Assembly (NCBI GenBank): GCA_964187785.1
Contig: OZ076409.1
Location: forward strand, 73,286,001 to 73,350,000
Direction of reading: 5' to 3'
Origin: Amphiscolops sp. MND2022
Lineage: Eukaryota
Length of the DNA: 64,000 bases
The notes under the pieces were generated by a model. The model was not told the origin of the DNA. It did not search any database and saw nothing but the letters and a program-made list of their open reading frames with translations. The translations under genes and the position numbers were made by a program. Within the stretch, counting starts at the first letter, position 1; every line of letters starts with the position of its first letter. Below, in pieces: positions 2,499 to 42,701 of the stretch.

Positions 2499-2546
2499 GT
2501 GATAGCCTTTTCAGTTGGCCTTGTGTCAACTTGGGAAGGCTATCAC
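2499..2546. other. Type-1 subterminal imperfect palindrome (example copy)
   Basis: GTGATAGCCTT..AGTTG..CAACT..AAGGCTATCAC; present in all A units, X and E. Confidence 0.85.
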
Positions 2547-2941
2547 ATCAAAAAATTTTCAACAAAATTTTTTTTGTTCATTGGAAATGACAGTCGATAT
2601 ATAATTTCGTGATTCTATACTACCGTTAGTACCTTCCATTAAGTCACCTGACGATTGCATTCAGTCTTTGATAAATACCTATGAACTCGAATTCATATTT
2701 ATTAATTTTGTGCTAAAAATAAACATCAAAATTATCCAAATTATTCAAAATTGAGTCTTTACCGTTTTTGTTTTTCTTTTTCTACTGTTATTAGGCCCAT
2801 CAACTTCCTACAGCCACGCTCTCTGTCATTAGTACAACGCCACATAGTGTTGCGACGTGCACAGTCTGTGGGCATGCCGAGGCATGCCCTTCGACGACGT
2901 ATGCCGAATACCGCGGGCCTACGCCCGCGCTCCCCGGCTAG

Positions 2942-18513: not shown

Positions 18514-20496
18514 GTGGGCGGGGGTAATTCCCCAACAAAAATTACGGCCGGCGGGTTGGGTCCTGCCGGACGTCAAATAGCAAAGAATATCTAGTAGGAA
18601 ACGGCGACACAGAATCGCGATTTTTAAATCTAACCACAATTTTTTGGACTTGGAGTGCATGCGGCCCTGAAATGCCCATACGAATCGAAGTTCCTGCTGA
18701 CATTAAGCGATTGAAATAATATATAAAAAGTTATGGCCCATTTTTCACTCACAAAGAAGGGTAAAATGAGGAAATTTTTAACAAAGTCGCTGATAACTCA
18801 AAATGTGTTAATTTTTGGACATTGACTGTGAAACAAGCTCGGAACCTTCATTTCGTGGCTGTGGCATTGCACTGAACACAAAAGATGTAAAGTTTTTACA
18901 TTTTTTGAAAATTCGAAATTTTTGAAATTTTTTTCACTACTATCAGTACCCCATATGTCAAAAACGCCTCAGAAAAAATTTTTTATTTGCTTTAAATTGG
19001 AAACCTTGGTATCCATGGTTTCTGTCGGATCCTACTCGCAGTCAAACACCCAACAGTTTGCATCCAATGTGGAAATAAAAATTTTTTCGGGGTCATTAGC
19101 GTTTCACAAGGATTTCTCAACTTAGTTTCAATTTACAAATTGGTCACATTGAACACATTATTTTCATCGAAGCGCGTCAGATACCGCCCTAAAGCACACG
19201 AACGGTCCTACTGGCAACGTAGCAACCATTTATAGTATTATAAAAGATTAAAAAATTTTTTCACCCGGTCTTCAGTCATTTTTCAGTCATTCGGAACTTA
19301 ACTTAGAAAAATTTCGACCAAAATACCCATTTTTTGTCAGGTCGAAAAATCGAATTCAGATTTTTAAGCAAAATTATTAACTCTGACGTAACTCATGGGG
19401 CCCATGATACTCAAAACAACGATTGACACTGGTATCAATGGCTCCAATAACATATGAGTTGCGATCGGACGTTATTTTGAGCAATACGTCTCAATTGAGG
19501 TAAAGATCTCGCAAGCCAGCGATCACTGTCAAATGTGATTTCATCAAAAATTTACTCATTTTTGTCAATCATTATGTGCACAGAATGCGTAGGGTGCGTT
19601 TCAGCAGTATAATGAGATTTTTGAATGCATCGAGTTGCTCAAGGGGTGGTACGAGACATTTTTGTCCCATATACTACTGTATTTTCCAACATTTTTAGCC
19701 CAATATCTGGAAATACAAACTTGACAAAATACTTTCAACTACTTTATTCAAAGGTTACAATATAGATGAACACTGTGGTTGATCAGAAACTTTCATCTCT
19801 TTCGTTTTCCGAAATATTTTCCTTCGCATGTGTTATATTTGTATCAGAAAAAAAATCGAAACTGAAAAATACGCTATTTTGCTAATATAGAATCGCAATG
19901 ATTGTGCCTAAAAACTCTTTAAACACTTCTAACGCGACCTTACGCACCCAAACTGATCGAAAATGCTATTCACAATGGTGACATGTGCTCTTTCAACGAT
20001 CCTGGCTGGACAAGGTTTGCATATTTTTCAAGTACCTGTCAGCTGAATCTTGTGATAGCCTTTTAAGTTGGCCTTGTGTCAACTTGGGAAGGCTATCACA
20101 TCAAACAACCATCAACAAAAAAATTTTTGTTTATTGGATATTACAGTTGATACCTTATTTCGTGATTCTATACTACCGTTAGTATATTCCATGAGGTCAC
20201 CTTACGATTGCATTCAGACTTTGATGAAATCCTATGAACTCAAAGTCACATTTATATATTTTTTGCCCAAAAAAATCATCAAAAACATCTAATATATATA
20301 AAATTGAGTCTTTAACTTTTTTACGTTTCAAGTTTCTGCCGTTATTAGGCCAATCAACTTCCTACAGCCACGCTCTCTGTCATACTGTACAACGCCACAT
20401 AGTGTTGCGACGTGCACGGTCTGTGGGCATGCCGAGGCATGCCCTTCGACGACGTATGCCGAATACCGCGGGCCTACGCCCGCGCTCCCCGGCTAG
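18514..20496 (+). mobile_element. Family A unit (1983 bp)
   Basis: Bounded by cores; same subtype as 8195-10177. Confidence 0.8.
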
Positions 20497-22730
20497 GTGG
20501 GCGGGGGTAATTCCCCAACTAAAAATTCGGCCGGCGGGTCGGGTCCTGCCGGCCGTCCAAAATCAAAATCCTACTAGTAGAAAACGGCATGTCAAACGAG
20601 CTATTTTTTTATTTAACCGTTAGAATTTGGGTTTAGATTGCATGCGGCCATGAAATGGCCATACGAATTGAAGTTCCTGCTGACGTTTTGCGATTGAAAC
20701 ACTTTATAAAAAGTTATGGCCAATTTGTCAGTCACCTAGAAGGGCAAAATGAGGAAAATTTTAACAAAGTCGCTGATATCTCAAAATGTGTTAATTTTTG
20801 GACTTTGACTGTGAAACAAGCTTGGAACCTTCATTTCGTGGCTGTGGCATTGCACTGAACACAAAAGCTGTAAAGTTTTCACATTTTTTGAAAATTCGAC
20901 ATTTTTGAAATTTCTTTCACTACCATCAGTACCCCATATGTCAAAAACACCTCAGAAAAAAATTTTTATTTGCTTTAAATTGGAAACCTTGGTATCCATG
21001 GTTTCTGTCGGAACCTACTCGCAGCCAAACACCCAACAGTTTGCATCCAATGTGAAATAAAAAAATTTTTCGAGGTCATAAGCGTTTCACAAGGTTTTCA
21101 TGATTTAGTATTAAATTACATAGTGGTCATTTTAAACATAAAATTTTGGTCCAGGCATGTCGGATATAGTCTGAATGCTCACGAACGGTCCTACTGGCAA
21201 CGTATGAACCATTTATAGTAATAAAAAGTATTAAAAAAATTTTTTCACCCGGTCTTCAGTCATTTTTCAGACATTCGGAACTTAACTTAGAAAATTTTCG
21301 AACCAAATACCCATTTTTTGTCAGGTCGAAAATTGAAATTCAGCTAATAAAGCAAAATTTTTTACTCTGACGTAACCAGTGGGGTCCATGATACTCAAAA
21401 ATACGATTGGGACTGGTACCAATGGCTCCTATATCATATGAGCCGCGATAAGATGTTATTTCGAGCAATACGTCTCAATTGAGGTAAACATCTCGCAAGC
21501 CTGGGATCACAGTGAATTGTAATTTTATCAAAATTTTACTCATTTTTGTCAATCACTATGTGCACAGAGTGCGTAGGGGGAGTTGTAGCACTATAATGAG
21601 GTTTTTGAAGGCATCGGGTTGCTCAAGGGGTGGTATGAGACATTTTTTTCCTATATACTACTGTATTTTCCAAAACTTTTAGCCCATTATCTGCAAAAAC
21701 TAACTTGACAAAATACTTTGAGTTACTCTACTCAAAGCTTAGAACATAGATGAACACTGTGGTTGATCAGAAACTATTTACTATTTTGTTTTTAGAAAAA
21801 ACTGCCTTGCATGTGTTACACTAGTGGCAGGAAAAATACCAGTAGCTCCAAAAATCACAAATTTGGACGGACAGACTTGCAATGATGCAAAGCAAAAACG
21901 TTTCAACAACTTCTGACGCCACTTCTTTTACCCAAGAGGTTCGAAAACGCCATTAACAAGGCTGACATTCGCAATAAATAAGATCGAGGTCCATTTACTA
22001 ACACTTAGGTTTCAAATTTGTTTCTGAGAAACCCGTTTTTGTCAGGTCGCAATTTCAAATTTAATTTGGGAAGCAAAATTTTTCACTCTGAAGCAAACCG
22101 CTGGGCCCAAATTACTCAAAAACAACAAAAAGACTATCACCATATGCTCTAATAACATATGAGATGCGACAGTATGCTTTTAACACAAAAACTCTCATCC
22201 GAAGTAAACATGTTGAAAGCCTTGAATCACCGTGAGAAGTGATTTCATCAAAAAATATTTCTTTTTCGTCAATCACTATATACACAAAACCCGTTGTGTT
22301 AGTTTCAGCCGTGAAATGAGGTTCTACCGTAATATGGGTTGCTCAAGGTGTTGTATAAGAGAAAATCGTCCTCTTTTCTACTAACTTCTTCAAATATTTC
22401 GACCCTTTGTCACACGAAGTTAAAATTCAAAATCTCTTTGAATTGTTTCTTTAGGTTGGGATGAAGTGGTAGAACAATAACTTTGATCCAAGAATGCTAG
22501 TATTGGTGTTTGGACCATGTTTGGATGAACAAATCGCAAAATCATGAAAAATTTGTTTCTTTTTTTGGTTATTTTGGCAGTACTAAAAATGTTAGCTGAC
22601 AAATAATTTTTTCGATAGCACCATTGGATTCCGCTCAAAAAGTTGGTTATATGACATGTGTAATAACGCCGTATCTTTTCAATTTAAATATATTTAAAAA
22701 GCCAACTTTTTTGACCAAAATCCTAAAAAT

Positions 22731-24075
22731 CATACCATTTCCTAAAAAATTTCAAATGCACCCCATTTGACGTATAACAATAGCACAGAAAACTATCATA
22801 TACCGATCAACTCTACTCTCATTGTGGATTATTAGCATTTTGTTTTGAACGAATTTTGATGGATATTAAAAAATTTTGAACCCTCCAAATATGGGCCAAA
22901 ATTACACGAAAAAATTGACCTTAAAATTTTAAAATGTCAAAAAATCATCAAAACTACAGCTTCTTGGGGTTCTATCAACTCCACGTGGTCCACAGAGTAC
23001 GCTAAAACAGGTTTTACCCGTTTTTGAGCAATATGTGAAAAAGCCGACATTTTTGGGAAAGAAAAACATCCCATTTCCTAAAAAAATTCAATTGCACGCC
23101 ATTTGCCGTATGAGAATAGCACGGAAAACTATCACATACCGATCAACTCTACTTTTATTGTAGATGATTAAAAATTAGTTTAAAACAAATTTTGACGGAT
23201 ATTAAAAAATTTTAAACCCTTAAAAAATGGGCCAAAATTACACGAAAAAATTGACCTTAAAATTTTAAAATGTCACAAAATCATCAAAACCACAGCTTCT
23301 TGGGGTTCTATCAACTCCACGTGGTCCACAGAGTACGCTAAAACAGGTTTTACCCGTTTTTGAGCAATATGTGAAAAAGCCGACATTTTTGGGGAAGAAA
23401 AAATAGGCATTTCCTAAAAAAATCAAATGCACGCCATTTGCCGTATAAGAATAGCACAGAAAACTATCATATACCGATCAACTCTACTCCCATTGTAGAT
23501 TATTAGAATTTTATTTTGAATGATTTTTGATGGTTATTAAAAAATTTTGAGCCCCCCAAAAGCGGGCCAAAATTACACGAAAAAATTGACCTTAAAATTT
23601 TAAAATGTCAAATAATCATCGAAACCACAGCTTCTTGGGGTTCTATCCACTCCACATGGCCCACAGAGTATGCCAAACCAGGTTTTGCGCGTTTTTGAGC
23701 AATATTTGAGAAAGCCGAGTTTTTTGGGGAAGAAAAACATAACATTTCCTAATAAAATTCAAATGCACGCCATTTGGCGTATGACAATAGCACAGAAAAC
23801 TATCACATACTAATCAACTCTACTCTCTTTGTAGATCACCAGAGTTTTGCTTAGAATAAATTTTGATGAATATTTGTAAATTTTAAACCCTCCTAATATG
23901 GGCCAAAATCACACGGAAAAATTGACCGTAAGGTATTAAAATGTCAGAAATTCATCAAAACCACAGCTTCTTGGGGTTCTATCATTTCTATATGACTTTC
24001 AGAGTATACCAAACAAGGTATTAACATTGGGCGATAATTAAAAACACCAATTTTATTTTAGAAGAAAACCATAAT
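22731..24075 (+). repeat. Internal tandem repeat, 4 x ~336 bp
   Basis: Unit starts near 22731, 23067, 23403, 23738. Confidence 0.9.
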
Positions 24076-24458
24076 AAGTTCAATATAAGAAGTGAATCAT
24101 TCCATATATATACCCTGTCTTATATTTTAAATTAGCGATAATATATATACTTGATGTTTTTTGAAAGTGAGCTTCATAAGTGGTTGAGATGTGATAATAC
24201 GTAAATGGATTCCAAGTTTCATCGAAATGTCAATGGAATACGTCCAATCAACTTCAATCTTAACAATTAGATAACAAAAAACCTAAGTACATTCCATCTC
24301 CCCATCGGGGAGATGAGAATGTACTTTTCAAAAACCAAAAACTTAGATGTTTTTTTTTTGTAACACTTACTGTAACTGCTGAAATGATGAAAGAATAATT
24401 ATGCTTCTAATAACTCCATGATTTTTTGCTTCAGCATTTTTTTTGCAGAACAAAACCA

Positions 24459-24782
24459 TCAGACATATTTTTCGCAGTTAAGTTCGATCGTATTACCCAG
24501 TGAACAAAGGTATGGAAGGATGTTTACAAGTTGTTTCAAAACTTTCCCGCCTTCCAAAATAATGAAACGTCTACACAACCAAGATAGCAAATGAATGAAT
24601 GCGGAATGCATCTTATTAGATAAGATAAATAACGTGTAGAACTTACCTTTATCTGAAGTTGACGTTGATTTATGATCTTTAGAGGATAGTTTGATTTTTG
24701 ACCATAATAGTGGGAAACTAATTATTATATGAATGATGGCGTGGAAAGCGTTCAGAAATTGTAGTATTTTGGATTCGAGCAT
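24459..24782 (-). pseudogene. Possible small ORF or coding remnant in the family B right arm (unknown product)
   Basis: Open in B2 (107 aa, also 41914-42237) and B3 (118 aa, 31177-31533). The same frame in B1 has a stop and a frameshift. B1/B2 substitutions are depleted at codon position 2. No recognisable domain. Confidence 0.25.
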
Positions 24783-25246
24783 GTATGCGTGGGTTCCTTT
24801 GGTGGCGTTAGCTTAGTGTACATGATGGAAGTTTTCGATCTGTTATGATTAATTTTACTCACGAGTCTTTGTTTTTCCTATTTTTTTGCCATTAAGTACA
24901 TTCATTCTATCCCCTTTTCTGAGAATGTACGTTTGTCAAATGACTGTCATCCAAATTTTGCATTCCCGAAGAGTTTAAATACATAACACGTGTTTAGCGT
25001 TTCCAAATCACAACCGAGTAACATTCTATTTTTTTTTCTCAAAATTGATAATGGTTTTGATTTTGGTGTCTTCTACTTTCATCATCCATCATAACAACCA
25101 CCTTACCATGTCTCTCGCTTGTCTTCATTTTACAACGCCACATAGTGTAGCGACGCCCACAGTCTGTGGGCATGCCGAGGCATGCCCTTCGACGACGTAT
25201 GCCAAATTTAGCGTTAGCCCGCGGTCACTACCGCGGTAGCAGCTAG

Positions 25247-27229
25247 GTGGGCGGGGGTAATTCCCCTTCAAAAAATTCGGCCGGCGGGTTGGGTCCTGCC
25301 GGACGTCAAATAGTGTGAAACATCCAGTAGGAAACGGCGACATTTATCAGCGATTTTAAAATTGAACCGTTAGAATTTGGACTTGGAGTGCATGCGGGCC
25401 CAAAATGCCCATACGAATCGAAGTTCCTGCTGACGTTAAGCGATAAAAACACTTTATAAAAAGTTATGGCCCATTTTACGTTCACTTAGAGAGGTAAAAT
25501 GAGGAAAATTTTAACAAAGTTGCTGATAACTCAAAATACATTAATTTTTGGACTTTGACTGTGAAACAAGCTTGGAACCTTCATTTCGTGGCTGTGGCAT
25601 TGCACTGAACACAAAAGATGTAAAGTTTTCACATTTTTTGAAAATTCGACATTTTTGAATTTTTTTCACTACTATCAGTACACTATATGTCAAAAACACC
25701 TCAGAAAAAAATTTTTATTTGCTTAAATTTAGAAACCTCGGTATCCATGGTTTCCGTCAGTACCTACTCGCAGCCAAACACTCAACAAATTGCATCCAAT
25801 GTGAAAATAAAATTTTTTTCGGGGTCATAAGCGTTTCACAAGGATTTCTCAACTTAGTATTAATTTACAAAATGGTCATTTTGAACACAATATTTTCATC
25901 GAGGCTTGTCGGCTATAGCCTTAATGTTCTAGAACGGTCCCACTGGCAACGTAGGAACCATTTATAGTAATAGAAAGTTTTAAAAAAATTTTTTCATCCG
26001 GTCTTCAGTCATTTTTCAGTCATTCGGAACTTAACTTAGAAAAATTTCGACCAAAATACCCATTTTTTGTCAGGTCGAAAATTCAAATTCAGATTTTTAA
26101 GCAAAATTATTAACTCTGACGTAACTCATGGGGCCCATGATACTCAAAACAACAATTGACACTGGTATCAATGGCTCCAATAACATATGAGTCGCGATAA
26201 GACGTTATTTTGAGCAATACGTCTCAATTGAGGTAAAGATCTCGCAAGCCAGCGATCACTGTGAAATGTGATTTCATCAAAAATTTACTCATTTTTGTCA
26301 ATCACTATGTGCACAGAATGCGTAGGGTGCGTTTCAGCACTATAATGAGGTATTTGAAAGCATCGAGTTGCTCAAGGGGTGGTATGAGACCTTTTTGTCC
26401 CATATACTTCTGTATTTTCCAAAATTTTTAGCCCAATATCTGGAAATACAAACATGACAAAATACTTTCAACTACTTTATTCAAAGGTTACAATATAGAT
26501 GAACACTGTGGTTGATCAGAAACTTTCATCTCTTTCGTTTTCCGAAATATTTCCCTTCGCATGTGTTACATTTGTAGCAGAAAAAAAATCGATACAGAAA
26601 AATACGCTATTTTGCTAATATAGAATCGCAATGATTGTGCCTAAAAACTCTTTAAACACTTCTAACGCGACCTTACGCACCCAAAAAGATCGAAAAGGCT
26701 ATTCACAATGGTGACTTGTGCTCTTTCAACGATCCTGACTGAACAATTTTCGCAAATTATTCAAGTACCTGTTAACTGAATCTCGTGATAGCCTTTTAAG
26801 TTGGCCTTGTGTCAACTTGGGAAGGCTATCACATCAAAAAATTTTCAACAAAAATACTTTTTGTTTATTGAAAATGACAGTCGATATATAATTTCGTGAT
26901 TCTATGCTACCGTTAGTACCTTCCATTAAGTCACCTGACGATTGCATTCAGTCTTTGATAAATACCTATGAACTCGAAGTCATATTTATAAATTTTTTGC
27001 TAAAAATAAACATCAAAATTATCCAAATTTATTAAAATTGAGTCTTTATTGTTTTTGTTTCTCTTTTTCTACTGTTATTAGGCCCATCAACTTCCTACAG
27101 CCACGCTCTCTGTCATACTGTACAACGCCACATAGTGTTGCGACGTGCACGGTCTGTGGGCATGCCGAGGCATGCCCTTCGACGACGTATGCCGAATACC
27201 GCGGGCCTACGCCCGCGCTCCCCGGCTAG
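25247..27229 (+). mobile_element. Family A unit (1983 bp)
   Basis: Bounded by cores; same subtype as 959-2941 and 35972-37952. Confidence 0.8.
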
Positions 27230-30200
27230 GTGGGGGGGGATATATCTCCACTTTTTTTGCGACCGCGGGTAGGGTCCTGTCGGGAGCTTCTATTTACCAA
27301 GCTTACGGCGCTATATACTAGAGAAAATTTTTCCGGCACCGAACTTTTTTTTGAACCATAGGATTTGTACCATTTTTTGCATGCGGCCCTAATTTGGGCA
27401 TACAAGACGAAGTTCCTGCTGACGTTAAGCGATGGTTTCATTGTGTAACGAGATATAGCCACTTTTTGGTGCGAATTTTGAGGTATTTTTGAGAAAAATT
27501 TTACAAACAGCTCGAATGCAAAAAATTGAAAAACTTGTGACAATCGACCTATCACTGGTTTAAACCTTCGATTCTTTGCCCTAGCAATGCACTAGACCCA
27601 AAAGATCTAAAACTTTTACATTTTCCAAAAATTTGACCAAATTGACTCGGGTTTCACTACTATATGTAACCAATGTGACAAAAACACCTCAGAAAAAAAT
27701 TTTTATTTGCTTAAATTTAGAAACCTTGGTATCCATGGTTTCTGTCGGAACCTACTCGCAGCCAAACACTCAACAGTTTGCATCCAATGTGAATTTAAAT
27801 TTTTTTTCGAGGTCATAGGTGTTTCACAAGGATTTCACAACTTAGTTTCATATTACAAATTGGTCATTTTCAACATCATATTTCCATCGAGGCATGTCGG
27901 ATAGAGTCTTATTGCTTACGAACGGTCCTACTGGCAACGTGTTAACCATTTATAGAAATACAAAGTTATAAAAAAATTTTTTCACCCGTTCTTCCATCAT
28001 TTTTCAGACATTCGGAACTTATCTTTCCGAGAAAAATTTCGTCTCAAAAACCCATTTTTTGTCAGGTCGAAAACTTAAATTCAGCTTTTTAAGCACAATT
28101 ATTAACTCTGACGTAACCAGTGGGGCCCATGATACTCAAAACAACGATTGGGGTTGGTACCATTGGCTCAAATAACATATGAGTCGCGATAAGACGTTAT
28201 TTTTAGCCATACGTCTCAATTGAGGTAAACATCTCGCAAGCCAGGGATCTCTGTGAAATGTGATTTCATCAAAAAGTTACCCATTTTCGCCAATTACTAT
28301 GTGCACAGAGTGCGTAGGGTGAGTTTCAGCACTATAATGAGGTTTTTGAAGGATTCGGGTTGCTCAAAGGGTGGTATGAGACATTTTTTTCCCATATACT
28401 ACTGTATTTTCCAAAAACTTTAGCCCATTATCTGGAAAAACTAACTTGACAAAATACTTTCAGTTACTCTATTCGAAGCTTAGAATATAGATGAACACTG
28501 TGGTTGATCAGAAACTATTAACTATTTTGTTTTTAGAAAAAAACTGCCTTGCATGTGTTACATTAGTGGCAGGAAAAATACCAGTAGCTCCAAAAATCAA
28601 AAATTTGGACGGACAGACTTCCAATGATGCAAAACAAAAACGTTTCAACAACTTCTGACGCCACATTTTTTACCCAAGAGGTTCGAAAACACCATTAACA
28701 ATGCTGACATTCGCAATAAATAAGATCGAGGTCTATTTACTAACACTTAGGTTTTAAATATTTTTCTCGGAAACCCATTATTGTCAGGTCGCAAATTCAA
28801 ATTTGGTTTTGGAAGCAATACTTTTCACTCTGAAGCAAACCGTTGGGCCCAAAATACTCAACAACAACAAAAAGACTATCACCATATGCTCTAATAACAT
28901 ATGAGATGCGACTGTATGTTTTTAACACAATAACTCTCATTCTGAAGTAAACATGTTGAAAGCCTTGAATCACCGTGAGAAGTGATTTCATCAAAAAATA
29001 TTTCTTTTTCGTCAATCACTAAATACACAGAACCCGTTGTGTTAGTTTCAGTCGTGAAATGAGGTTCTACCGTAATATCGGTTGCTCAATGTGTTGTATA
29101 AGGCAAAAACTTCCTCTTTTCTACTAACTTCTTCAAATATTTCAACCCTTTGTCACACGAAGTTAATATTCAAAATCTCTTTGAAATGTTTCTTAAGGTT
29201 GTGGTGAATTGTTAGAACAATTACTATGATCGAAGAATGCTAGTATTGGTGTTTGGACCATGTCCGGATGAACAAATCGCAAAATCAAGAAAAAATTGTT
29301 TCCTTTTTTGGTTATTTTGGCAGTAATAAAAATGTTAGCTGATAAATAATTTTTTCGAAGGCACCATTGGATTCCGCTCAAAAAGTTGATTATAAGACAT
29401 GTGTAATAACCCCGTATCTTTTCAATTTAAATAAATTTAAAAAGCAAACTTTTTTGACGAAAATCCTAAAAATCATACCATTTCCTAAAAAATTTCAAAT
29501 GCACTCCATTTGACGTATAAGAATAGCACAGAAAACTATCATATACCGATCAACTCTACTCCCATTGTAGACTATTAGAATTTTGTTTTGATTGAATTTT
29601 GAAGAATATTAAAAAATTTTGAACCCTCCAAAAATGGACCAAAATTACACGAAAAAATTGACCTTAAAATTTTAAAATGTCAAAAAATCATCAAAACCAC
29701 AGCTTCTTGGGGTTCTATCAACTCCACGTGGTCCACAGAGTACGCTAAAACAGGTTTTACCTGTTTTTGAGCAATATGTGAAAAAGCCGACATTTTTGGG
29801 AAAGAAAAACATACCATTTCCTAAAATATTTCAAATGCACGCCATTTGCCGTATGAAAATAGCACAGAAAACTATCACATACCGATCAACTCTACTTTCA
29901 TTGTAGATGATTAGAAATTAGTTTAAATGAAAATTAGACGGATAATAAAAAAATATAAATCCTCCAAAAGTGGGCAAAAATTACACGAAAAAATTGTCCT
30001 TAAAATATTAAAATGTCGAATAATCATCAAAACCACAGCTTCTTGGGGTTCTATCAACTCCACATGGTCCACAGAGTACGCTAAAACAGGTTTTACCCGT
30101 TTTTGAGCAATATGTGGAAAAGCCGACATTTTTGGGAAAGAAAAACATAACATTTCCTAAAAAAATTCACATGCACGCCATTTGGCGTATAAGAATAGCA

Positions 30201-32002
30201 CAGAAAACTATCATATACCGATCAACTCTACTCCTATTGTAGATTATTAGAACTTTGTTTTGAATGAATTTTGATGGATAATAAAAAATTTTGAACCCTC
30301 CGAAAATGGGCTAAAATTACACGAAAAAATTGACCCTAAAATTTTAAAATGTCTAAAAATCATCAAAACCACAGCTTCTTGAGGTTCTATCAACTCCACA
30401 TGGCCCACAGAGTATGCCAAACCAGGTTTTGCGCGTTTTTGAGCAAAATTTAGGAAAGCCGATTTTTTTGAGGAAGAAAAACATATCATTTCCTAAAAAA
30501 CTTCAAATGCACGCCATTTGGCGTATAACAATAGCACAGAAAACTATCACATACCAATCAACTCTACTCTTTTTGTAGATTACCAGAAGTTTGCTTGGAA
30601 TAACTTTTGATGAATATTTATAAATTTTAAACCCTCCTAATATGGGCCAAAATCACACGGAAAAATTGACCCTAAGTATTAAAATGTCAGATATTCATCA
30701 AAACCCCAGCTTCTTGGGGTTCTATCATTTCCATATGACTTTCAGAGTATACCAAACAAGTTATTAACATTGGGCGATAATTAAAAAGACCAATTTTATT
30801 CTGAAGAAAACCATAATATGTTCAATATAAGAAGTGAATCATTCCACATATATACCCTGTCTAATATTCTAAATTAGCAAAAAAATATATACTTGATGTT
30901 TTTTGAATGTGAGCTTCATAAAAGGTTGAGATGTGATAATACGTAAATGGATTCCAAGTTTCATCGAAAAGTCAATGGAATACGTCCAATCAACTTCAAT
31001 CTTAACAATTCGATAACAAAAAACACTTAAGTACATTCCATCTCCCTATCGGGGAGATGAGAATGTACTTTTCAAAAACTAAAAACTTAGATCTTTCTAT
31101 CTTTTGTAACACTTACTGTAACAGCTGAAATGATGAAAGAATAATTATTCTTCTAATAACTTCAAGATTTTTTGCTTCACCTTTTATTTCTGCAGAACAA
31201 AACCATGAGACATACATATTTTTCGCAGTTAAGTTCGACTGTATTACCCAGTGAACAAAGGTATGACAGGAAGATTACAAGTAGTCTCAAAACTTTCCCG
31301 CCTTCCAAAATCATGAAACGTCTACACAACCAAGATAGTAAAGGAATGAATGTGGAATGCATCATTTTAGTTAAAATAAATAACGTGTAGAACTTACCTT
31401 TATCTGAAGATGACGTTGATTTATGATCTTTAGAGGATAGTTCAATTTTTGACCATAATAGTGCGAAACTAATTATTATATGAATAATGGCGTGGAAAGC
31501 GTTCAGAAATTGCAGTATTTTCGATTCGAGCATGTATGCGTGGGTTCCTTTGGTGGCATTAGCTTAGTGTACATGATGGAAGTTTTCGATCTATTATGAT
31601 AAAATTTACTCACAAGTCTTTGTTTTTCCTATTTTTTTATGCCATTAAGTACATTCATTCTATCCCCTTCTCTGGGAATGTACGTTTGCCAAATGACTGT
31701 CATCCAAATTTTGCATTCGCGAAGAGTTTAAATACATAAACACGTCTTTAGCGTTTCCAAATCACAACCGATTAACATTTTTTAAAATTTTTTTATGAAA
31801 ATTGATAATTTGTTTTGATTTTGGTATCTTCTACTTTTATCATCCATCATAACAAGCACCTTACCATGTCTCTCGCTTGTCTTCATTTTACAACGCCACA
31901 TAGCGTTCCGACTCCCACCGTCTGTGGGCATGCCGAGGCATGCCCTTCGACGACGTATGCCAACTACTTTTTATATCTACACCCGATTGCGGTAGCGGCT
32001 AG
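27230..32002 (+). mobile_element. Family B unit, subtype B3 with divergent left arm (4773 bp)
   Basis: First ~450 bp strongly diverged from other A/B units; remainder B-like. Confidence 0.8.
29474..30815 (+). repeat. Internal tandem repeat, 4 x ~336 bp
   Basis: Unit starts near 29474, 29810, 30146, 30482. Confidence 0.9.
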
Positions 32003-33984
32003 GTGGGCGGGGGTAATTCCCCTTCAAAAAATTCGGCCGGCGGGTTGGGTCCTGCCGGACGTCAAATAGTGTGAAACATCCAGTAGGAAACGGCGACATA
32101 AATCAGCGATTTTAAAATTTAACCGTTAGAATTCGGACTTGGAGTGCATGCGGCCCCAAAATGCCCATACGAATCGAAGTTCCTGCTGACGTTAAGCGAT
32201 AAAAACATTTTATAAAAAGTTATGGCCCATTTTACGTTCACCTATAAGGGTAAAATGAGGAAAATTTTTACAAAGTCGCTGATAACTCAAAATACATTAA
32301 TTTTTGGACTTTGACTGTGAAACAAGCTTAGAACCTTCATTTCGTGGCTGTGGCATTGCACTGAACACAAAAGCTGTAAAGTTTTTACATTTTTTGAAAA
32401 TTCGACATTTTTGATTTTTTTTCACTACTATCAGTACACTATATGTCAAAAACACCTCTGAAAAAAATTATTATTTGCTTAAAATTGGAAACCTTGGTAT
32501 CCATGGTTTCTGTCGGAACCTACTCGCTGCCAAACACCCAACAGTTTGCATCCAATGTGAATTTAAAATTTTTTTCGAGGTCATAAGTGTTTCACAAGGT
32601 TTTCATAACTTAGTATTAAACTACAAACTGGTCATTTTCAACATAATATCTTTGTCGAGGCATGTCGGATATAGTCCTATTGCTCACGAACGGTCCTACT
32701 GGCAACGTAATAACCATTTATAGAAATGTAAAGTTATAAAAAAAAATTTCACCCGGTCTTCAGTCATTTTTCTGTCATTCGGAACTTAACTTAGAAAAAT
32801 TTCGACCAAAATATCCATTTTTTGTCAGGTCGAAAAATCAAATTCAGATTTTTAAGCAAAATTATTAACTCTGACGTAACCCATGGGGCCCATGATACTC
32901 AAAACAACGATTGACACTGGTATCAATGGCTCCAATAACATATGAGTCGCGATAAGACGTTATTTTGAGCATTACGTCTCAATTGAGGTAAAGATCTCGC
33001 AAGCCAGCGATCACTGTGAAATGTGATTTCATCAAAAATTTACTCTTTTTTGTCAATCACTATGTGCACAGAATGCGTAGGGTGCGTTTCAGCACTATAA
33101 TGAGGTTTTTGAAGGCATCGAGTTGCTCAAGGGGTGGTATGAGACATTTTTGTCCCATATACTACTGTATTTTCCAAAATTTTTAGCCCAATATCTGGAA
33201 ATACAAACTTGACAAAATACTTTCAACTACTTTATTCAAAGGTTACAATATAGATGAACACTGTGGTTGATCAGAAACTTTCATCTCTTTCGTTTTCCGA
33301 AATATTTCCTTTCGCATGTGTTACATTCGTAGCAGAAAAAAAAATCGAAACTGAAAAATACGCAATTTTGCTAATATAGAATCGCAATGATTGTGCCTAA
33401 AAACTCTTTAAACACTTCTAACGCGACCTTACGCACTCAAAATGATCGAAAATGCTATTCACAATGGTGACAAGTGCTCTTTCTACGATCCTGACTGGAC
33501 AAGGTTAGCATATATTTCAAGTACCTGTCAGCTAAATCTTGTGATAGCCTTTTCAGTTGGCCTTGTGTCAACTTGGGAAGGCTATCACATCAAAAAACCA
33601 TCAACAACAATAATTCTTGTTTATTGGATCTTACAGTCGATACTTTTTTTCGTGATTCTATACTACCGTTAGTATATTTCATCAGGTCACCTTACGATTG
33701 CATTCAGTCTTTGATAAAAACCTATGAACTCAAAGTCACATTTATATATTATTTTGCCAAAAAAACATCCAAAATATCTAAAATATATGAAATAGAGTCT
33801 TTAACATTTTTACATTTCAAGTTTTTGCCGTTATTAGGCCCATCAACTTCCTACAGCCACGCTCTCTGTCATTAGTACAACGCCACATAGTGTTGCGACG
33901 TTCACGGTCTGTGGGCATGCCGAGGCATGCCCTTCGACGACGTATGCCGAATACCGCGGGCCTACGCCCGCGCTCCCCGGCTAG
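32003..33984 (+). mobile_element. Family A unit, mosaic (1982 bp)
   Basis: Left ~570 bp matches the 6208 subtype; the remainder matches other subtypes. Confidence 0.8.
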
Positions 33985-35971
33985 GTGGGCGGGGGTAATT
34001 CCCCAACAAAAATTACGGCCGGCGGGTTGGGTCCTGCCGGACGTCAAATAGCAAAGAATATCTAGTAGGAAACGGCGACACAGAATCGCGATTTTTAAAT
34101 CTAACCACAATTTTTTGGACTTGGAGTGCATGCGGCCCTGAAATGCCCATACGAATCGAAGTTCCTGCTGACGTTAAGCGATTGAAATAATATATAAAAA
34201 GTTATGGCCCATTTTTCACTCACAAAGAAGGGTAAAATGAGGAAATTTTTAACAAAGTCGCTGATAACTCAAAATGTGTTAATTTTTGGACTTTGACTGT
34301 GAAACAAGCTCGGAACCTTCATTTCGTGGCTGTGGCATTGCACTGAACACAAAAGATGTAAAGTTTTTACATTTTTTGAAAATTCGAAATTTTTGAAATT
34401 TTTTTCACTACTATCAGGACCCCATATGTCAAAAACGCCTCAGAAAAAATTTTTTATTTGCTTTAAATTGGAAACCTTGGTATCCATGGTTTCTGTCGGA
34501 TCCTACTCGCAGTCAAACACCCAACAGTTTGCATCCAATGTGGAAATAAAAATTTTTTCGGGGTCATAAGCGTTTCACAAGGATTTCTCAACTTAGTTTC
34601 AATTTACAAATTGGTCACATTGAACACATTATTTTCATCGAAGCGCGTCAGATACCGCCCTAAAGCTCACGAACGGTCCTACTGGCAACGTAGCAACCAT
34701 TTATAGTAATATAAAAGATTAAAAAATTTTTTTCACCCGGTCTTCAGTCATTTTTCAGTCATTCGGAACTTAACTTAGAAAAATTTCGACCAAAATACCC
34801 ATTTTTTGTCAGGTCGAAAAATCAAATTCAGATTTTTAAGCAAAATTATTAACTCTGACGTAACTCATGGGGCCCATGATACTCAAAACAACGATTGACA
34901 CTGGTATCAATGGCTCCAATAACATATGAGTCGCGATCGGACGTTATTTTGAGCAATACGTCTCAATTGAGGTAAAGATCTCGCAAGCCAGCGATCACTC
35001 TCAAATGTGATTTCATCAAAAATTTACTCACTTTTGTCAATCATTATGTGCACAGAATGCGTAGGGTGCGTTTCAGCACTATAATGAGATTTTTGAATGC
35101 ATCGAGTTGCTCAAGGGGTGGTACGAGACATTTTTGTCCCATATACTACTGTATTTTCCAAAATTTTTAGCCCAATATCTGGAAATACAAACTTGACAAA
35201 ATACTTTCAACTACTTTATTCAAAGGTTACAATATAGATGAACACTGTGGTTGATCAGAAACTTTCATCTCTTTCGTTTTCCGAAATATTTTCCTTCGCA
35301 TGTGTTATATTTGTATCACAAAAAAAAATCGAAACTGAAAAATACGCTATTTTGGTAATATAGAATCGCAATGATTGTGCCTAAAAACTCTTTAAACACT
35401 TCTAACGCGACCTTACGCACCCAAAATGATCGAAAATGCTATTCACAATGGTGACATGTGCTCTTTCAACAATCCTGGCTGGACAAGGTTTGCATATTTT
35501 TCAAGTACCTGTCAGCTGAATCTTGTGATAGCCTTTTCAGTTGGCCTTGTGTCAACTTGGGAAGGCTATCACATCAAAAAACCATCAACAAAAATAATTT
35601 TTGTTTATTGGATCTTACAGTCGATACTTTTTTTCGTGATTCTATACTACCGTTAGTATATTTCATCAGGTCACCTTACGATTGCATTCAGTCTTTGATA
35701 AAAACCTATGAACTCAAAGTCACATTTATATATTTTTTTGCCAGAAAATAACATCAAAAATATCTAAAATATATAAAATAGAGTCTTTAACATTTTTACG
35801 TTTCAAGTTTTTGCCGTTATTAGGCCAATCAACGTCCTAGAGCCACATCCTGCCACATACTGTACAACGCCACATAGTGTTGCGACGTGCACAGTCTGTG
35901 GGCATGCCGAGGCATGCCCTTCGACGACGTATGCCGAATACCGCGGGCCTACGCCCGCGCTCCCCGGCTAG
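33985..35971 (+). mobile_element. Family A unit, mosaic (1987 bp)
   Basis: Left part 8195-type; right end 2942-type (aacgtcctagagccacatcctgcc). Confidence 0.8.
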
Positions 35972-37952
35972 GTGGGCGGGGGTAATTCCCCAACAAAAAA
36001 TTCGGCCGGCGGGTTGGGTCCTGCCGGACGTCAAATAGTGTGAAACATCCAGTAGGAAACGGCGACATTTATCAGCGATTTTAAAATTTAACCGTTAGAA
36101 TTCGGACTTGGAGTGCATGCGGCCCCAAAATGCCCATACGAATCGAAGTTCCTGCTGACGTTAAGCGGTAAAAACATTTTATAAAAAGTTATGGCCCATT
36201 TTACGTTCACTTAGAGAGGTAAAATGAGGAAAATTTAAACAAAGTTGCTGATAACTCAAAATACATTAATTTTTGGACTTTGACTGTGAAACAAGCTTGG
36301 AACCTTCATTTCGTGGCTGTGGCATTGCACTGAACACAAAAGATGTAAAGTTTTCACATTTTTTGAAAATTCGACGTTTTTGAATTTTTTTCACTACTAT
36401 CAGTACACTATATGTCAAAAACACCTCTGAAAAAATTTTTTGTTTGCTTAAATTTAGAAACCTCGGTATCCATGGTTTCTGTCGGAACCTACTCGCAGCC
36501 AAACACTCAACAGTTTCCATCCAATGTGAAAATAAAATTTTTTTCGGGGTCATAAGCGTTTCACAAGGATTTCTCAACTTAGTATTAATTTACAAAATGG
36601 TCATTTTGAACACAATATTTTCATCGAGGCTTGTCGGCTATAGCCTTAATGTTCTAGAACGGTCCCACTGGCAACGTAGGAACCATTTATAGTAATAGAA
36701 AGTTTTAAAAAAATATTTTCACCCGGTCTTCAGTCATTTTTCAGTCATTCGGAACTTAACTTAGAAAAATTTCGACCAAAATACCCATTTTTTGTCAGGT
36801 CGAAAAATCAAATTAAGATTTTTAAGCAAAATTATTAACTCTGACGTAACCCATGGGGCCCATGATACTCAATACAACGATTGACACTGGTATCAATGGC
36901 TCCAATAACATATGAGTTGCGATAAGACGTTATTTTGAGCAATACGTCTCAATTGAGGTAAAGATCTCGCAAGCCAGCGATCACTGTGAAATGTGATTTC
37001 ATCAAAAATTTACTCATTTTTGTCAATCACTATGTGCACAGAATGCGTAGGGTGCGTTTCAGCACTATAATGAGGTATTTGAAAGCATCGAGTTGCTCAA
37101 GGGGTGGTATGAGACATTTTTGTCCCATATACTTCTGTATTTTCCAAAATTTTTAGCCCAATATCTGGAAATACAAACATGACAAATAACTTTCAACTAC
37201 TTTATTCAAAGGTTACAATATAGATGAACACTGTGGTTGATCAGAAACTTTCATCTCTTTCGTTTTCCGAAATATTTCCCTTCGCATGTGTTACATTTGT
37301 AGCAGAAAAAAAATCGATACTGAAAAATACGCTATTTTGCTAATATAGAATCGCAATGATTGTGCCTAAAAACTCTTTAAACACTTCTAGCGCGACCTTA
37401 CGCACCCAAAATGATCGAAAATGCTATTCACAATGGTGACATGTGCTCTTTCAACGATCCTGACTGAACAATTTTCGCAAATTATTCAAGTACCTGTTAA
37501 CTGAATCTCGTGATAGCCTTTTAAGTTGGCCTTGCGTCAACTTGGGAAGGCTATCACATCAAAAAATTTCCAACAAAAAACTTTTTGTTTATTGGAAATG
37601 ACAGTCGATATATAATTTCATGTGTCTATACTACCGTTAGTACCTTCCATTAAGTCACCTGACGATTGCATTCAGTCTTTGATAAATACCTATGAACTCG
37701 AAGTCATATTTATAAATTTTGTGCTAAAAATAACCATCAAAAGTATCCAAATTATTTAAAATTGAGTCTTTACCGTTTTTGTTTTTCTTTTTCTACTGTT
37801 ATTAGGCCCATCAACTTCCTACAGCCACGCTCTCTGTCATTAGTACAACGCCACATAGTGTTGCGACGTGCACGGTCTGTGGGCATGCCGAGGCATGCCC
37901 TTCGACGACGTATGCCGAATACCGCGGGCCTACGCCCGCGCTCCCCGGCTAG
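35972..37952 (+). mobile_element. Family A unit (1981 bp)
   Basis: Bounded by cores; 959/25247 subtype. Confidence 0.8.
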
Positions 37953-40900
37953 GTGGGCGGGGGTAATTCCCCAACTAAAAATTCGGCCGGCGGGTCGGGT
38001 CCTGCCGGCCGTCCAAAATCAAAATCCTACTAGTAGAAAACGGCATGTCAAACGAGCTATTTTTTTATTTAACCGTTAGAATTTGGGTTTAGATTGCATG
38101 CGGCCATGAAATGGCCATACGAATTGAAGTTCCTGCTGACGTTTTGCGATTGAAACACTTTATAAAAAGTTATGGCCAATTTGTCAGTCACCTAGAAGGG
38201 CAAAATGAGGAAAATTTTAACAAAGTCGCTGATATCTCAAAATGTGTTAATTTTTGGACTTTGACTGTGAAACAAGCTTGGAACCTTCATTTCGTGGCTG
38301 TGGCATTGCACTGAACACAAAAGCTGTAAAGTTTTCACATTTTTTGAAAATTCGACATTTTTGAAATTTCTTTCACTACCATCAGTACCCCATATGTCAA
38401 AAACACCTCAGAAAAAAATTTTTATTTGCTTTAAATTGGAAACCTTGGTATCCATGGTTTCTGTCGGAACCTACTCGCAGCCAAACACCCAACAGTTTGC
38501 ATCCAATGTGAAATAAAAAATTTTTTCGAGGTCATAAGCGTTTCACAAGGTTTTCATGATTTAGTATTAAATTACATAGTGGTCATTTTAAACATAAAAT
38601 TTTGGTCCAGGCATGTCGGATATAGTCTGAATGCTCACGAACGGTCCTACTGGCAACGTATGAACCATTTATAGTAATAAAAAGTATTAAAAAAATTTTT
38701 TCACCCGGTCTTCAGTCATTTTTCAGACATTCGGAACTTAACTTAGAAAATTTTCGAACCAAATACCCATTTTTTGTCAGGTCGAAAATTGAAATTCAGC
38801 TAATAAAGCAAAATTTTTTACTCTGACGTAACCAGTGGGGTCCATGATACTCAAAAATACGATTGGGACTGGTACCAATGGCTCCTATATCATATGAGCC
38901 GCGATAAGATGTTATTTCGAGCAATACGTCTCAATTGAGGTAAACATCTCGCAAGCCTGGGATCACAGTGAATTGTAATTTTATCAAAATTTTACTCATT
39001 TTTGTCAATCACTATGTGCACAGAGTGCGTAGGGGGAGTTGTAGCACTATAATGAGGTTTTTGAAGGCATCGGGTTGCTCAAGGGGTGGTATGAGACATT
39101 TTTTTCCTATATACTACTGTATTTTCCAAAACTTTTAGCCCATTATCTGCAAAAACTAACTTGACAAAATACTTTGAGTTACTCTACTCAAAGCTTAGAA
39201 CATAGATGAACACTGTGGTTGATCAGAAACTATTTACTATTTTGTTTTTAGAAAAAACTGCCTTGCATGTGTTACACTAGTGGCAGGAAAAATACCAGTA
39301 GCTCCAAAAATCACAAATTTGGACGGACAGACTTGCAATGATGCAAAGCAAAAACGTTTCAACAACTTCTGACGCCACTTCTTTTACCCAAGAGGTTCGA
39401 AAACGCCATTAACAAGGCTGACATTCGCAATAAATAAGATCGAGGTCCATTTACTAACACTTAGGTTTCAAATTTGTTTCTGAGAAACCCATTTTTGTCA
39501 GGTCGCAATTTCAAATTTAATTTGGGAAGCAAAATTTTTCACTCTGAAGCAAACCGCTGGGCCCAAATTACTCAAAAACAACAAAAAGACTATCACCATA
39601 TGCTCTAATAACATATGAGATGCGACAGTATGCTTTTAACACAAAAACTCTCATCCGAAGTAAACATGTTGAAAGCCTTGAATCACCGTGAGAAGTGATT
39701 TCATCAAAAAATATTTCTTTTTCGTCAATCACTATATACACAAAACCCGTTGTGTTAGTTTCAGCCGTGAAATGAGGTTCTACCGTAATATGGGTTGCTC
39801 AAGGTGTTGTATAAGAGAAAATCGTCCTCTTTTCTACTAACTTCTTCAAATATTTCGACCCTTTGTCACACGAAGTTAAAATTCAAAATCTCTTTGAATT
39901 GTTTCTTTAGGTTGGGATGAAGTGGTAGAACAATAACTTTGATCCAAGAATGCTAGTATTGGTGTTTGGACCATGTTTGGATGAACAAATCGCAAAATCA
40001 TGAAAAATTTGTTTCTTTTTTTGGTTATTTTGGCAGTACTAAAAATGTTAGCTGACAAATAATTTTTTCGATAGCACCATTGGATTCCGCTCAAAAAGTT
40101 GGTTATATGACATGTGTAATAACGCCGTATCTTTTCAATTTAAATATATTTAAAAAGCCAACTTTTTTGACCAAAATCCTAAAAATCATACCATTTCCTA
40201 AAAAATTTCAAATGCACCCCATTTGACGTATAACAATAGCACAGAAAACTATCATATACCGATCAACTCTACTCTCATTGTGGATTATTAGCATTTTGTT
40301 TTGAACGAATTTTGATGGATATTAAAAAATTTTGAACCCTCCAAATATGGGCCAAAATTACACGAAAAAATTGACCTTAAAATTTTAAAATGTCAAAAAA
40401 TCATCAAAACTACAGCTTCTTGGGGTTCTATCAACTCCACGTGGTCCACAGAGTACGCTAAAACAGGTTTTACCCGTTTTTGAGCAATATGTGAAAAAGC
40501 CGACATTTTTGGGAAAGAAAAACATCCCATTTCCTAAAAAAATTCAATTGCACGCCATTTGCCGTATGAGAATAGCACGGAAAACTATCACATACCGATC
40601 AACTCTACTTTTATTGTAGATGATTAAAAATTAGTTTAAAACAAATTTTGACGGATATTAAAAAATTTTAAACCCTTAAAAAATGGGCCAAAATTACACG
40701 AAAAAATTGACCTTAAAATTTTAAAATGTCACAAAATCATCAAAACCACAGCTTCTTGGGGTTCTATCAACTCCACGTGGTCCACAGAGTACGCTAAAAC
40801 AGGTTTTACCCGTTTTTGAGCAATATGTGAAAAAGCCGACATTTTTGGGGAAGAAAAAATAGGCATTTCCTAAAAAAATCAAATGCACGCCATTTGCCGT

Positions 40901-42701
40901 ATAAGAATAGCACAGAAAACTATCATATACCGATCAACTCTACTCCCATTGTAGATTATTAGAATTTTATTTTGAATGATTTTTGATGGTTATTAAAAAA
41001 TTTTGAGCCCCCCAAAAGCGGGCCAAAATTACACGAAAAAATTGACCTTAAAATTTTAAAATGTCAAATAATCATCGAAACCACAGCTTCTTGGGGTTCT
41101 ATCCACTCCACATGGCCCACAGAGTATGCCAAACCAGGTTTTGCGCGTTTTTGAGCAATATTTGAGAAAGCCGAGTTTTTTGGGGAAGAAAAACATAACA
41201 TTTCCTAATAAAATTCAAATGCACGCCATTTGGCGTATGACAATAGCACAGAAAACTATCACATACTAATCAACTCTACTCTCTTTGTAGATCACCAGAG
41301 TTTTGCTTAGAATAAATTTTGATGAATATTTGTAAATTTTAAACCCTCCTAATATGGGCCAAAATCACACGGAAAAATTGACCGTAAGGTATTAAAATGT
41401 CAGAAATTCATCAAAACCACAGCTTCTTGGGGTTCTATCATTTCTATATGACTTTCAGAGTATACCAAACAAGGTATTAACATTGGGCGATAATTAAAAA
41501 CACCAATTTTATTTTAGAAGAAAACCATAATAAGTTCAATATAAGAAGTGAATCATTCCATATATATACCCTGTCTTATATTTTAAATTAGCGATAATAT
41601 ATATACTTGATGTTTTTTGAAAGTGAGCTTCATAAGTGGTTGAGATGTGATAATACGTAAATGGATTCCAAGTTTCATCGAAATGTCAATGGAATACGTC
41701 CAATCAACTTCAATCTTAACAATTAGATAACAAAAAACCTAAGTACATTCCATCTCCCCATCGGGGAGATGAGAATGTACTTTTCAAAAACCAAAAACTT
41801 AGATGTTTTTTTTTGTAACACTTACTGTAACTGCTGAAATGATGAAAGAATAATTATGCTTCTAATAACTCCATGATTTTTTGCTTCAGCATTTTTTTTG
41901 CAGAACAAAACCATCAGACATATTTTTCGCAGTTAAGTTCGATCGTATTACCCAGTGAACAAAGGTATGGAAGGATGTTTACAAGTTGTTTCAAAACTTT
42001 CCCGCCTTCCAAAATAATGAAACGTCTACACAACCAAGATAGCAAATGAATGAATGCGGAATGCATCTTATTAGATAAGATAAATAACGTGTAGAACTTA
42101 CCTTTATCTGAAGTTGACGTTGATTTATGATCTTTAGAGGATAGTTTGATTTTTGACCATAATAGTGGGAAACTAATTATTATATGAATGATGGCGTGGA
42201 AAGCGTTCAGAAATTGTAGTATTTTGGATTCGAGCATGTATGCGTGGGTTCCTTTGGTGGCGTTAGCTTAGTGTACATGATGGAAGTTTTCGATCTGTTA
42301 TGATTAATTTTACTCACGAGTCTTTGTTTTTCCTATTTTTTTGCCATTAAGTACATTCATTCTATCCCCTTTTCTGAGAATGTACGTTTGTCAAATGACT
42401 GTCATCCAAATTTTGCATTCCCGAAGAGTTTAAATACATAACACGTGTTTAGCGTTTCCAAATCACAACCGAGTAACATTCTATTTTTTTTTCTCAAAAT
42501 TGATAATGGTTTTGATTTTGGTGTCTTCTACTTTCATCATCCATCATAACAACCACCTTACCATGTCTCTCGCTTGTCTTCATTTTACAACGCCACATAG
42601 TGTAGCGACGCCCACAGTCTGTGGGCATGCCGAGGCATGCCCTTCGACGACGTATGCCAAATTTAGCGTTAGCCCGCGGTCACTACCGCGGTAGCAGCTA
42701 G
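37953..42701 (+). mobile_element. Family B unit, subtype B2 (4749 bp)
   Basis: Near-identical to 20497-25246. Confidence 0.8.
40187..41530 (+). repeat. Internal tandem repeat, 4 x ~336 bp
   Basis: Same array as 22731-24075. Confidence 0.9.

Follow-up and report, generated by a model that had tools for sequence, protein, structure and literature searches.

How does a one-way array of differing units come to be joined, unit after unit, at a single 8-bp site? The question is raised by a stretch of the Amphiscolops sp. MND2022 genome (GCA_964187785.1, contig OZ076409.1, positions 73,286,001 to 73,350,000, forward strand), referred to here, at its full length of 64 kb, as the window (36.8% GC, no N). 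The window is a head-to-tail array throughout, comprising 24 complete non-coding units of 1.1-4.8 kb and two partial units, numbered U00 to U25 (Table 1). Delimited by cutting between CTAG and GTGG, the complete units comprise 14 of family A (~1985 bp), six of family B (~4760 bp; three B1, two B2 and one B3) and single members of families C, D, E and F. Our analysis suggests, with confidence and doubt about evenly balanced, that these are rolling-circle, Helitron-like non-autonomous elements which insert at their own end junction and were later patched by gene conversion. That joining at the shared core has happened repeatedly, whatever the enzyme, is very probable.

Joints and breakpoints of identity

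The core CTAGGTGG occurs 24 times on the + strand and never on the - strand, and outside the joints the + strand holds no copy of it with one mismatch. All 25 joints of the window lie on the + strand, 24 of them reading CTAG/GTGG (the slash marks the cut) and one CTGG/GTGG. Every left end (25/25) starts GTGG, or TGG if the cut is placed one base later, and the base after CTAG is G in 24/24; as the exact cut, CTAG/GTGG and CTAGG/TGG cannot be told apart. GG is central in 26/26 joints, counting one further joint from a metagenome contig described below. With the cut at CTAG/GTGG, all units start GT and all except F end AG, as introns do; a spliceosomal reading was rejected, there being no pyrimidine tract before the AG, no exons and no other splice features seen.

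The joints are combinatorial. By hand count, 15 combinations are formed between nine types of right end (ten when A4 and B2 are counted separately) and seven types of left end, with 5-11 identical bases measured at the joints; in the pairs measured, exact sharing extends 1-7 nt to the left and 4-7 nt to the right of the cut. Five left-end types follow one and the same A terminus, of which the last 46 nt are identical in 11 of 12 copies. A sequence-only reading of this locus had noted such changing partners, and they are confirmed: the right end CTCCCCGGCTAG is present in 12 copies, followed by A/B left ends, C (4930), D (10178), B3 (27230) and F (46677), while B1 is preceded by E (13751), F (47742) and A (56486), the last being an A variant, A4. 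The families so joined were there called unrelated, which does not hold, since all share terminal motifs and A and B are ~85% alike over their first ~1470 bp. The order of subfamilies is indistinguishable from random (one adjacent same-type pair versus 1.4 expected), and the pattern expected of a satellite with higher-order repeats, duplicated multi-unit blocks with adjacent or periodic sister copies, was not found; no near-identical tract covers two full units.

The two B2 copies are near-identical, as the same reading had stated, with 99.94% identity over 4750 positions; the three differences lie at 21065, at 22035 and at 24350, the last a 1-nt gap, and two of them sit in homopolymer runs. 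They are indeed flanked by different A subtypes, with left neighbours 91.3% and right neighbours 90.8% alike. That identity switches at the core is borne out to within 1-7 nt for U05/U09, U22/U24 and the left side of U08/U20, U05/U09 being the cleanest whole-unit pair (exact match extends beyond the cuts by 7 nt on the left and 4 nt on the right). The B2 pair is pinned to the junction zone only, because the ends of A are shared, and its exact identity extends past the cuts by 110 nt on the left and 20 nt on the right. Breakpoints mapped by stringent self-alignment are enriched near the cuts: of 82 segment ends, 12 fall within 12 nt of a cut, where 1.0% would be expected, and 21 in the junction zone, where 8.2% would be expected. 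Most (61/82), however, lie outside that zone and reflect the conserved middle of A, small B1 indels and true mosaics. Core-bounded and internal breakpoints therefore both exist. Between non-homologous neighbours, any mechanism would leave identity ending at the core; where flanks are homologous, four of five tract ends fall in the junction zone (~8.5% of flank; binomial 2e-4), which is also the best substrate for homologous recombination.

Unequal crossover alone had been judged insufficient, and the wider set of copies agrees. Of the nine unit pairs with at least 98% identity, seven are not adjacent and have, on either side, neighbours that are not sister copies. The other two are U17/U18, which adjoin each other, and U08/U20, whose shared tract continues for 465 nt into the following A. 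In the case of U22/U24, the unit to the right of U24 is the partial G, whose left end was taken to mark it as different. In a crude null simulation (tandem duplication and deletion of 1-6 units, no conversion; unit pairs not independent), non-adjacent non-sister pairs made up 8-33%, and a share of 75% was reached in no more than 0.6% of the runs with 6-12 pairs. Whole units are joined at the core, as had been proposed. That they moved recently is likely but not proven, since near-identity may also stem from conversion or from loop-out via the ~170-bp junction shared by A and B. The structure is real and unusual, and the earlier inference at the level of units largely stands.

Unit ends and kinship of the families

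All right ends but that of F carry two CAACGCC(C)AC-type repeats ~21 bp apart, a palindrome RGGCATGCC-GA-GGCATGCCY and TTCGACGACGTATG, with 69-79 nt from the start of the palindrome to the cut. In A, A4, B1, B2 and C these are followed by a terminal hairpin of 14-18 nt, which ends 10-12 nt before the last base of CTAG and whose stem sequence differs between families. Common to all left ends are a pair of hairpins, of which the second has a TAGGGT-like loop, and a box at ~+110 to +200 (57% mean column identity over 8 types). Across nine sequences, 77.8% of the cells of left hairpin 2 are paired, versus 64.0 +/- 4.0 when shuffled (0/500), with two-sided change in four of eight pairs and a covariation of 0.375 (4/500 shuffles); D and G are out of register in this alignment. 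No unit lacks its left end; the right end, by contrast, is missing in F and present twice in D. The two motifs of D are 199 bp apart (12054-12361); the inner one reads CTGA 67 nt after the palindrome start, and its palindrome bears an identical C>T change in each half, each giving a G.T pair on the + strand. It is possible that this inner right end is a bypassed 3' end.

Between the first 80 and the last 130 nt of 12 representatives, no inverted repeat was found beyond matches of 5-7 nt exact, or 8-9 nt with one mismatch. Judged by their sequences, all families form one clade, and their shared terminal motifs are as expected of non-autonomous elements moved in trans. Each family also has one long bulged hairpin 260-970 bp before the right end (300-970 bp in families with a full right end), of two unrelated sequence types: X in A, A4, E and U00, and H in B, C and D. 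In shape, these hairpins resemble the 5' hairpins of DINE-1/HINE, but they have no inverted partner.

Two further observations concern the right ends. The palindrome (881-900 and 23 further right ends, e.g. 20425, 25168 and 37881) resembles a p53-family response element, the consensus of which is two copies of RRRCWWGYYY; of its 20 positions, 19 agree in 23 right ends and 18 in the remaining one, and only three sites elsewhere in the window reach 18/20. The palindrome may serve as a site for p53/p63 of the host, or for the transposase itself. Moreover, in A and B units, and in no others, CTATGTGG, which has a single mismatch to the core, stands in inverted orientation ~95 nt ahead of the cut (2847, 4835, 8100, 20402, 25145 and others; - strand). 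The idea that CCACATAG, ~95 nt before the cut and pairing with the core at 7 of 8 positions, acts as a guide was rejected because this pairing does not covary in C, D, E or L001, the metagenome contig introduced below.

Coding content is sparse. The window holds two open reading frames (ORFs) of at least 150 aa, both in A units, and a Pfam scan of 20 selected longer frames gave nothing above the curated cut-off (best E 0.003, sub-threshold), neither the serine recombinase TnpA nor TnpB/Fanzor2 being found in these frames. Rfam at E up to 1 and a tRNA scan each gave 0 matches in the window. Beyond it, the metagenome contig L001 (OBOP01004400.1, 1172 bp), the sole match of its pattern scan, is a head-to-tail joint comprising hairpin H, the right-end motif, the core CGAGGTGC, both left hairpins and the box, with an interior unlike any unit of the window. 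Pattern scans of viral contigs gave 0 matches, and blastn against phages and plasmids gave no match; a single match among genome contigs (L002), from a bacterium of 77% GC, is without every other motif and was taken as chance. Together with the lack of coding content, this dearth of prokaryotic and viral matches suggests a eukaryotic host. Sequencing run X1 shares 7% of the words of the window, in 32 short low-depth pieces with no informative joint, and no RNA run is listed.

Candidate mechanisms of array growth

We favour a rolling-circle origin. The units would be non-autonomous members of one clade without terminal inverted repeats, on which an HUH single-strand transposase encoded elsewhere would act in trans. 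This enzyme may recognise the left-end hairpins and nick the + strand in the core, after which the + strand would be peeled off up to the right-end hairpin and CTAG. The ends would then be joined, re-forming CTAG/GTGG in a circle, and the circle would be pasted into a joint-like site, in practice a junction of the existing array. Because each insertion would regenerate its target, orientation-fixed mixed arrays would grow one unit at a time; ordinary gene conversion would afterwards patch A and B copies. The fixed orientation, the hairpin-CTAG geometry of Helitron1, the left-end hairpin 2 kept across nine sequences, the central tandem repeats and the architecture of L001 favour this reading, and the CTGG end of F also fits the CTRR 3' end of Helitron1. 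The spread of 69-79 nt between palindrome and cut is more easily reconciled with loose recognition of a single strand than with a rigid site in duplex DNA. Moreover, a left end that is never missing, beside a right end missing in F and doubled in D, suggests the polarity of rolling-circle transposition, with a precise start and a leaky terminator. Among 168 pairs in 24 stems drawn by eye on the + strand, 16 are G.T and one is A.C; the ratio is ~7 to 1 by hand count after terminal and homologous positions are dropped, which is suggestive only. Strand-biased deamination was rejected as the cause of this excess, since singleton mutations are about as often C>T (60) as G>A (55), without strand bias.

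Several observations weigh against a rolling-circle origin. The 5' end is GTGG rather than TC, and G rather than T follows every CTAG; L001 has CGAG in place of CTRR; the terminal hairpin is absent in D and E and weak in B3 and U00; and the X hairpin, 94% paired, shows no two-sided change. It is on the - strand that right ends fold slightly better, with no clear separation of the strands by shuffle z-scores; the full G.T tally comes from stems drawn on the + strand and counts homologous positions repeatedly. No transposase or remnant of one, nor an autonomous Rep/helicase partner, was found in the window among the ORFs or in the Pfam scan, and an 8-bp shared core is described as equally typical of tyrosine recombinases.

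A more tentative possibility is that the array represents an undescribed class of eukaryotic self-targeting mobile DNA. An HUH enzyme or a recombinase would here recognise the structured joint and assemble many non-autonomous families into one-way cassette arrays like those of integrons, with single units gained or lost at the 8-bp site, possibly under the control of the near-perfect p53-type site of the right ends.

The main rival to the rolling-circle reading, which we regard as doubtful, is that the units are Crypton-like cassettes, excised as double-stranded circles by a tyrosine recombinase through crossover at the 8-bp core and re-integrated at any junction with the same core, as integron cassettes are. 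Every unit is flanked by the directly repeated 8-mer, with no terminal inverted repeat or other duplication, and an asymmetric core would also fix orientation. Cryptons with 4-6-bp terminal direct repeats (PMC3212892) and tyrosine recombinase spacers of 6-8 bp (PMC13465315) are described, and the right-end direct repeats with their palindrome resemble duplex binding sites. However, there are no conserved inverted arms, and the bases adjacent to the core differ freely between families; the core is longer than described for Cryptons, tolerates change in its left half (CTGG, CGAG) and stands at a variable distance from the palindrome. Neither the geometry of hairpin plus CTAG nor the + strand G.T bias would be expected of such cassettes.

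It is unlikely that the array is an old product of past site-specific insertions which now changes by homologous recombination only, either by whole-unit conversion or by loop-out and re-entry via the ~170-bp A/B junction acting as a miniature long terminal repeat (LTR). Mosaic A and B1 units with internal switches, the U08/U20 tract that continues into the next A, and the B2 identity beyond both cuts are all consistent with such exchange. Recombination cannot, however, make the 15 distinct joints of right and left ends with so few shared bases, nor does it account for an A terminus that stays the same whatever follows; the tract ends gathered in the junction zone among homologous flanks also speak against it, although that zone is its best substrate. 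Recombination alone explains the mosaics, and perhaps the B2 pair, but not the joints.

Elements of the IS607 type, with a serine recombinase crossing over at the central GG of the core, are very unlikely to be the source. The GG common to all joints would suit them, and IS607 is described as lacking terminal inverted repeats and target-site duplications and as carrying short direct-repeat motifs inside its ends (PMC6188088, PMC10711439). Its target need only be (G)GG (PMC6188088), so that joints would not be the sole places of insertion; the Fanzor2 elements described from molluscs have terminal inverted repeats and target-site duplications (PMC10711439), no helically phased motif arrays were seen at the left end, and the covarying hairpins would be unexplained. 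Still more improbable is an origin from RNA-based elements (non-LTR, Penelope-like or retrozyme-like) that insert at their own end through target-primed reverse transcription. Uniform orientation, G.T(U) wobbles and one truncated unit would be compatible with it, and tandem arrays of R1 are described as arising by double insertion (PMC5932611); against it, there is no poly(A) or other tail, no Rfam match at the threshold used and no tRNA head, 23 of 24 units are full-length, and, on the strand that the wobbles favour, F would be truncated at its 3' end, which is the wrong polarity. An assembly artefact of collapsed or shuffled repeats, to which the B2 differences in homopolymer runs might point, is barely credible, as most copies differ by 1-15% in coherent subfamilies, mis-joins within B2 would still require both flank types to exist, and the independent record L001 shows the same type of joint.

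If the rolling-circle reading is true, such arrays would add a third way for transposons to give rise to long tandem DNA, alongside concatemer insertion and unequal exchange: by restoring their target at each insertion, the elements would create a safe harbour for themselves. The target of Helitrons is usually given as no more than a dinucleotide, and a lineage with an 8-bp self-derived target would make recognition of end and target testable. Its enzyme would be a scarless eukaryotic integrase for multi-kb cargo, with a specific target sequence and a fixed orientation; were a recombinase responsible instead, the array would be a eukaryotic counterpart of cassette arrays.

Internal features and relation to known systems

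Some internal features of the units stand apart from their ends. B units contain, besides the 336-bp tandem repeat (Table 1), an older internal duplication of ~330 bp (unit positions ~815-1146 and ~1536-1866, ~70%). D and E have a 66% region in common (10932-11120 and 13072-13270) with repeated ACCGGAAG, and related CCGGAA motifs occur in U00 and U25. A run of ~14 G in F (46770-46784), just after the left-end hairpins, is possibly sequencing-prone.

Table 1. Units, joints and structural features of the array (window positions unless a contig is named)
Feature	Position	Strand	Description
U00	1..958	+	Partial unit, further family; X hairpin ~495-535, right-end motif, CTAG end
U01	959..2941	+	Family A, subtype A1, 1983 bp
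U02	2942..4929	+	A3; 99.25% to U18
U03	4930..6207	+	Family C, 1278 bp; H hairpin ~5902-5940
U04	6208..8194	+	Divergent A (A6)
U05	8195..10177	+	A2; 99.04% to U09
U06	10178..12361	+	Family D, 2184 bp; two right-end motifs
U07	12362..13750	+	Family E, 1389 bp; X hairpin ~13399-13440
U08	13751..18513	+	B1, 4763 bp; four 336-bp internal repeats (15980-17316)
U09	18514..20496	+	A2
U10	20497..25246	+	B2 copy 1, 4750 bp
U11	25247..27229	+	A1
U12	27230..32002	+	B3, 4773 bp; left-end type of its own
U13	32003..33984	+	A5
U14	33985..35971	+	Mosaic: A2 body, last ~650 bp A3-type
U15	35972..37952	+	A1
U16	37953..42701	+	B2 copy 2, 4749 bp
U17	42702..44688	+	A3, last ~240 bp swapped
U18	44689..46676	+	A3
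U19	46677..47741	+	Family F, 1065 bp; normal left end, no right-end motif, CTGG end
U20	47742..52509	+	B1
U21	52510..54493	+	A2/A3 mosaic
U22	54494..56485	+	A4, right end B2-like
U23	56486..61247	+	B1; first ~206 bp outside the near-identical tract of U08/U20, left end A4-like; probable recombinant
U24	61248..63239	+	A4; 98.7% to U22
U25	63240..64000	+	Partial unit, further family (G)
Core at 24/25 joints	955, 2938, 4926, 6204, 8191, 10174, 12358, 13747, 18510, 20493, 25243, 27226, 31999, 33981, 35968, 37949, 42698, 44685, 46673, 52506, 54490, 56482, 61244, 63236	+	CTAGGTGG
25th joint, F to B1	47738	+	CTGGGTGG
Left core of B2 copy 1	20493..20500	+	CTAGGTGG
Left end of B2 copy 1	20497..20556	+	GTGG, hairpin 1 (GGGG/CCCC), hairpin 2 with loop TNGGGT/TAGGGT; structure kept across families
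Right-end motif of B2	25132..25205	+	Two CAACGCC(C)AC-type repeats, palindrome GGGCATGCCGAGGCATGCCC (25168-25187), then TTCGACGACGTATG
Terminal hairpin of B2	25219..25246	+	18-nt hairpin, then 10 nt ending CTAG; Helitron-type 3' geometry
Inner right end of D	12054..12160	+	Degenerate, C-like; palindrome at 12094 with two C>T, CTGA at 12157
X hairpins	2499-2545, 13399-13440, 495-535
H hairpins	5902-5940, 11850-11893, 17548-17586, 24287-24324, 31021-31068, L001:567-605
H hairpin of B2 copy 1	24287..24324	+	Bulged; also in B1, B3, C, D and L001
Bulged hairpin of F	47482-47540		Long
336-bp repeat, B2 copy 1	22726..23984	+	Internal tandem repeat, 3.8 copies
336-bp repeat, B units	15980-17316, 22726-23984, 29469-30727, 40182-41440, 49972-51322, 58716-60065		3.8-4 copies

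Helitron1 is described with a 5' TC, a 3' CTRR, a hairpin 10-12 nt from the end, and end bypass with multiple termini (PMC5148889), inserting between A and T (PMC11417382); central tandem repeats are described as common in non-autonomous Helitron-like elements. The array resembles it in lacking terminal inverted repeats and target-site duplications, in its internal tandem repeats and multiple or bypassed termini, and in orientation-specific insertion. A 3' CTRR is found, as CTAG in 24 and CTGG in one of 25 right ends, with CGAG in L001, and the hairpin stands at the Helitron1 distance in the five end types named above but is weak in B3 and U00 and absent in D and E. Unlike Helitron1, it has the 5' GTGG and no A-T target, two structured left-end hairpins, and a pure, multi-family, one-way array with 24 of 25 joints exact. 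With HLE2/Helentron, HINE/DINE-1, Cg_HINE and FoHeli it shares hairpins at both ends and central repeats, and FoHeli3-5, described as starting TGCCT, are a precedent for non-TC 5' ends; unlike HLE2/Helentron/HINE, it shows no asymmetric or subterminal inverted repeat of 11-18 nt, and neither insertion between two T nor T-rich flanks, and no microsatellite was found. Target-specific, strand-biased Helitrons that target telomeres are described in Paramecium (PMC13085455).

Like Cryptons, the units have a short terminal direct repeat shared with the target and no terminal inverted repeat. They differ in a repeat of 8 rather than 4-6 bp and in forming mixed arrays, which are not among the features given in the Crypton descriptions drawn on here, and no tyrosine recombinase was found in the window; nor do the joints show the 11-13-bp inverted arms around a spacer of a typical site for such enzymes. 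Replitrons (Y1 HUH) likewise combine a short direct terminal repeat, a right-end palindrome and orientation-specific insertion. Their descriptions, as far as drawn on here, place them in algae, plants and protists, give an RG target with fuzzy ends for Replitron-1 and do not list arrays. IS607 shares the GG crossover dinucleotide at both ends, but no recombinase gene was found in the window, and hAT or P transposons (DDE class) stacked in one 8-bp target-site duplication would have terminal inverted repeats, which these units lack. Tandem elements arise by double insertion in Drosophila (PMC5932611), and transposon arrays in Papilio are described as having expanded in blocks of 100-200 kb (10.64898/2026.07.30.741882). 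None of the Paramecium, Drosophila and Papilio cases is a unit-by-unit mixed array at a self-derived core, of which no description was found in the full-text searches made; Repbase and Dfam fell outside this search, and the families are possibly deposited there. The array is not assigned to Helitron1, HLE2, Crypton, Replitron or IS607, for none of which all the defining features were found here. In layout, it has an analogy in integron cassette arrays, where differing cassettes are separated by one structured site; unlike integron cassettes, its units hold no cargo genes and carry both ends themselves.

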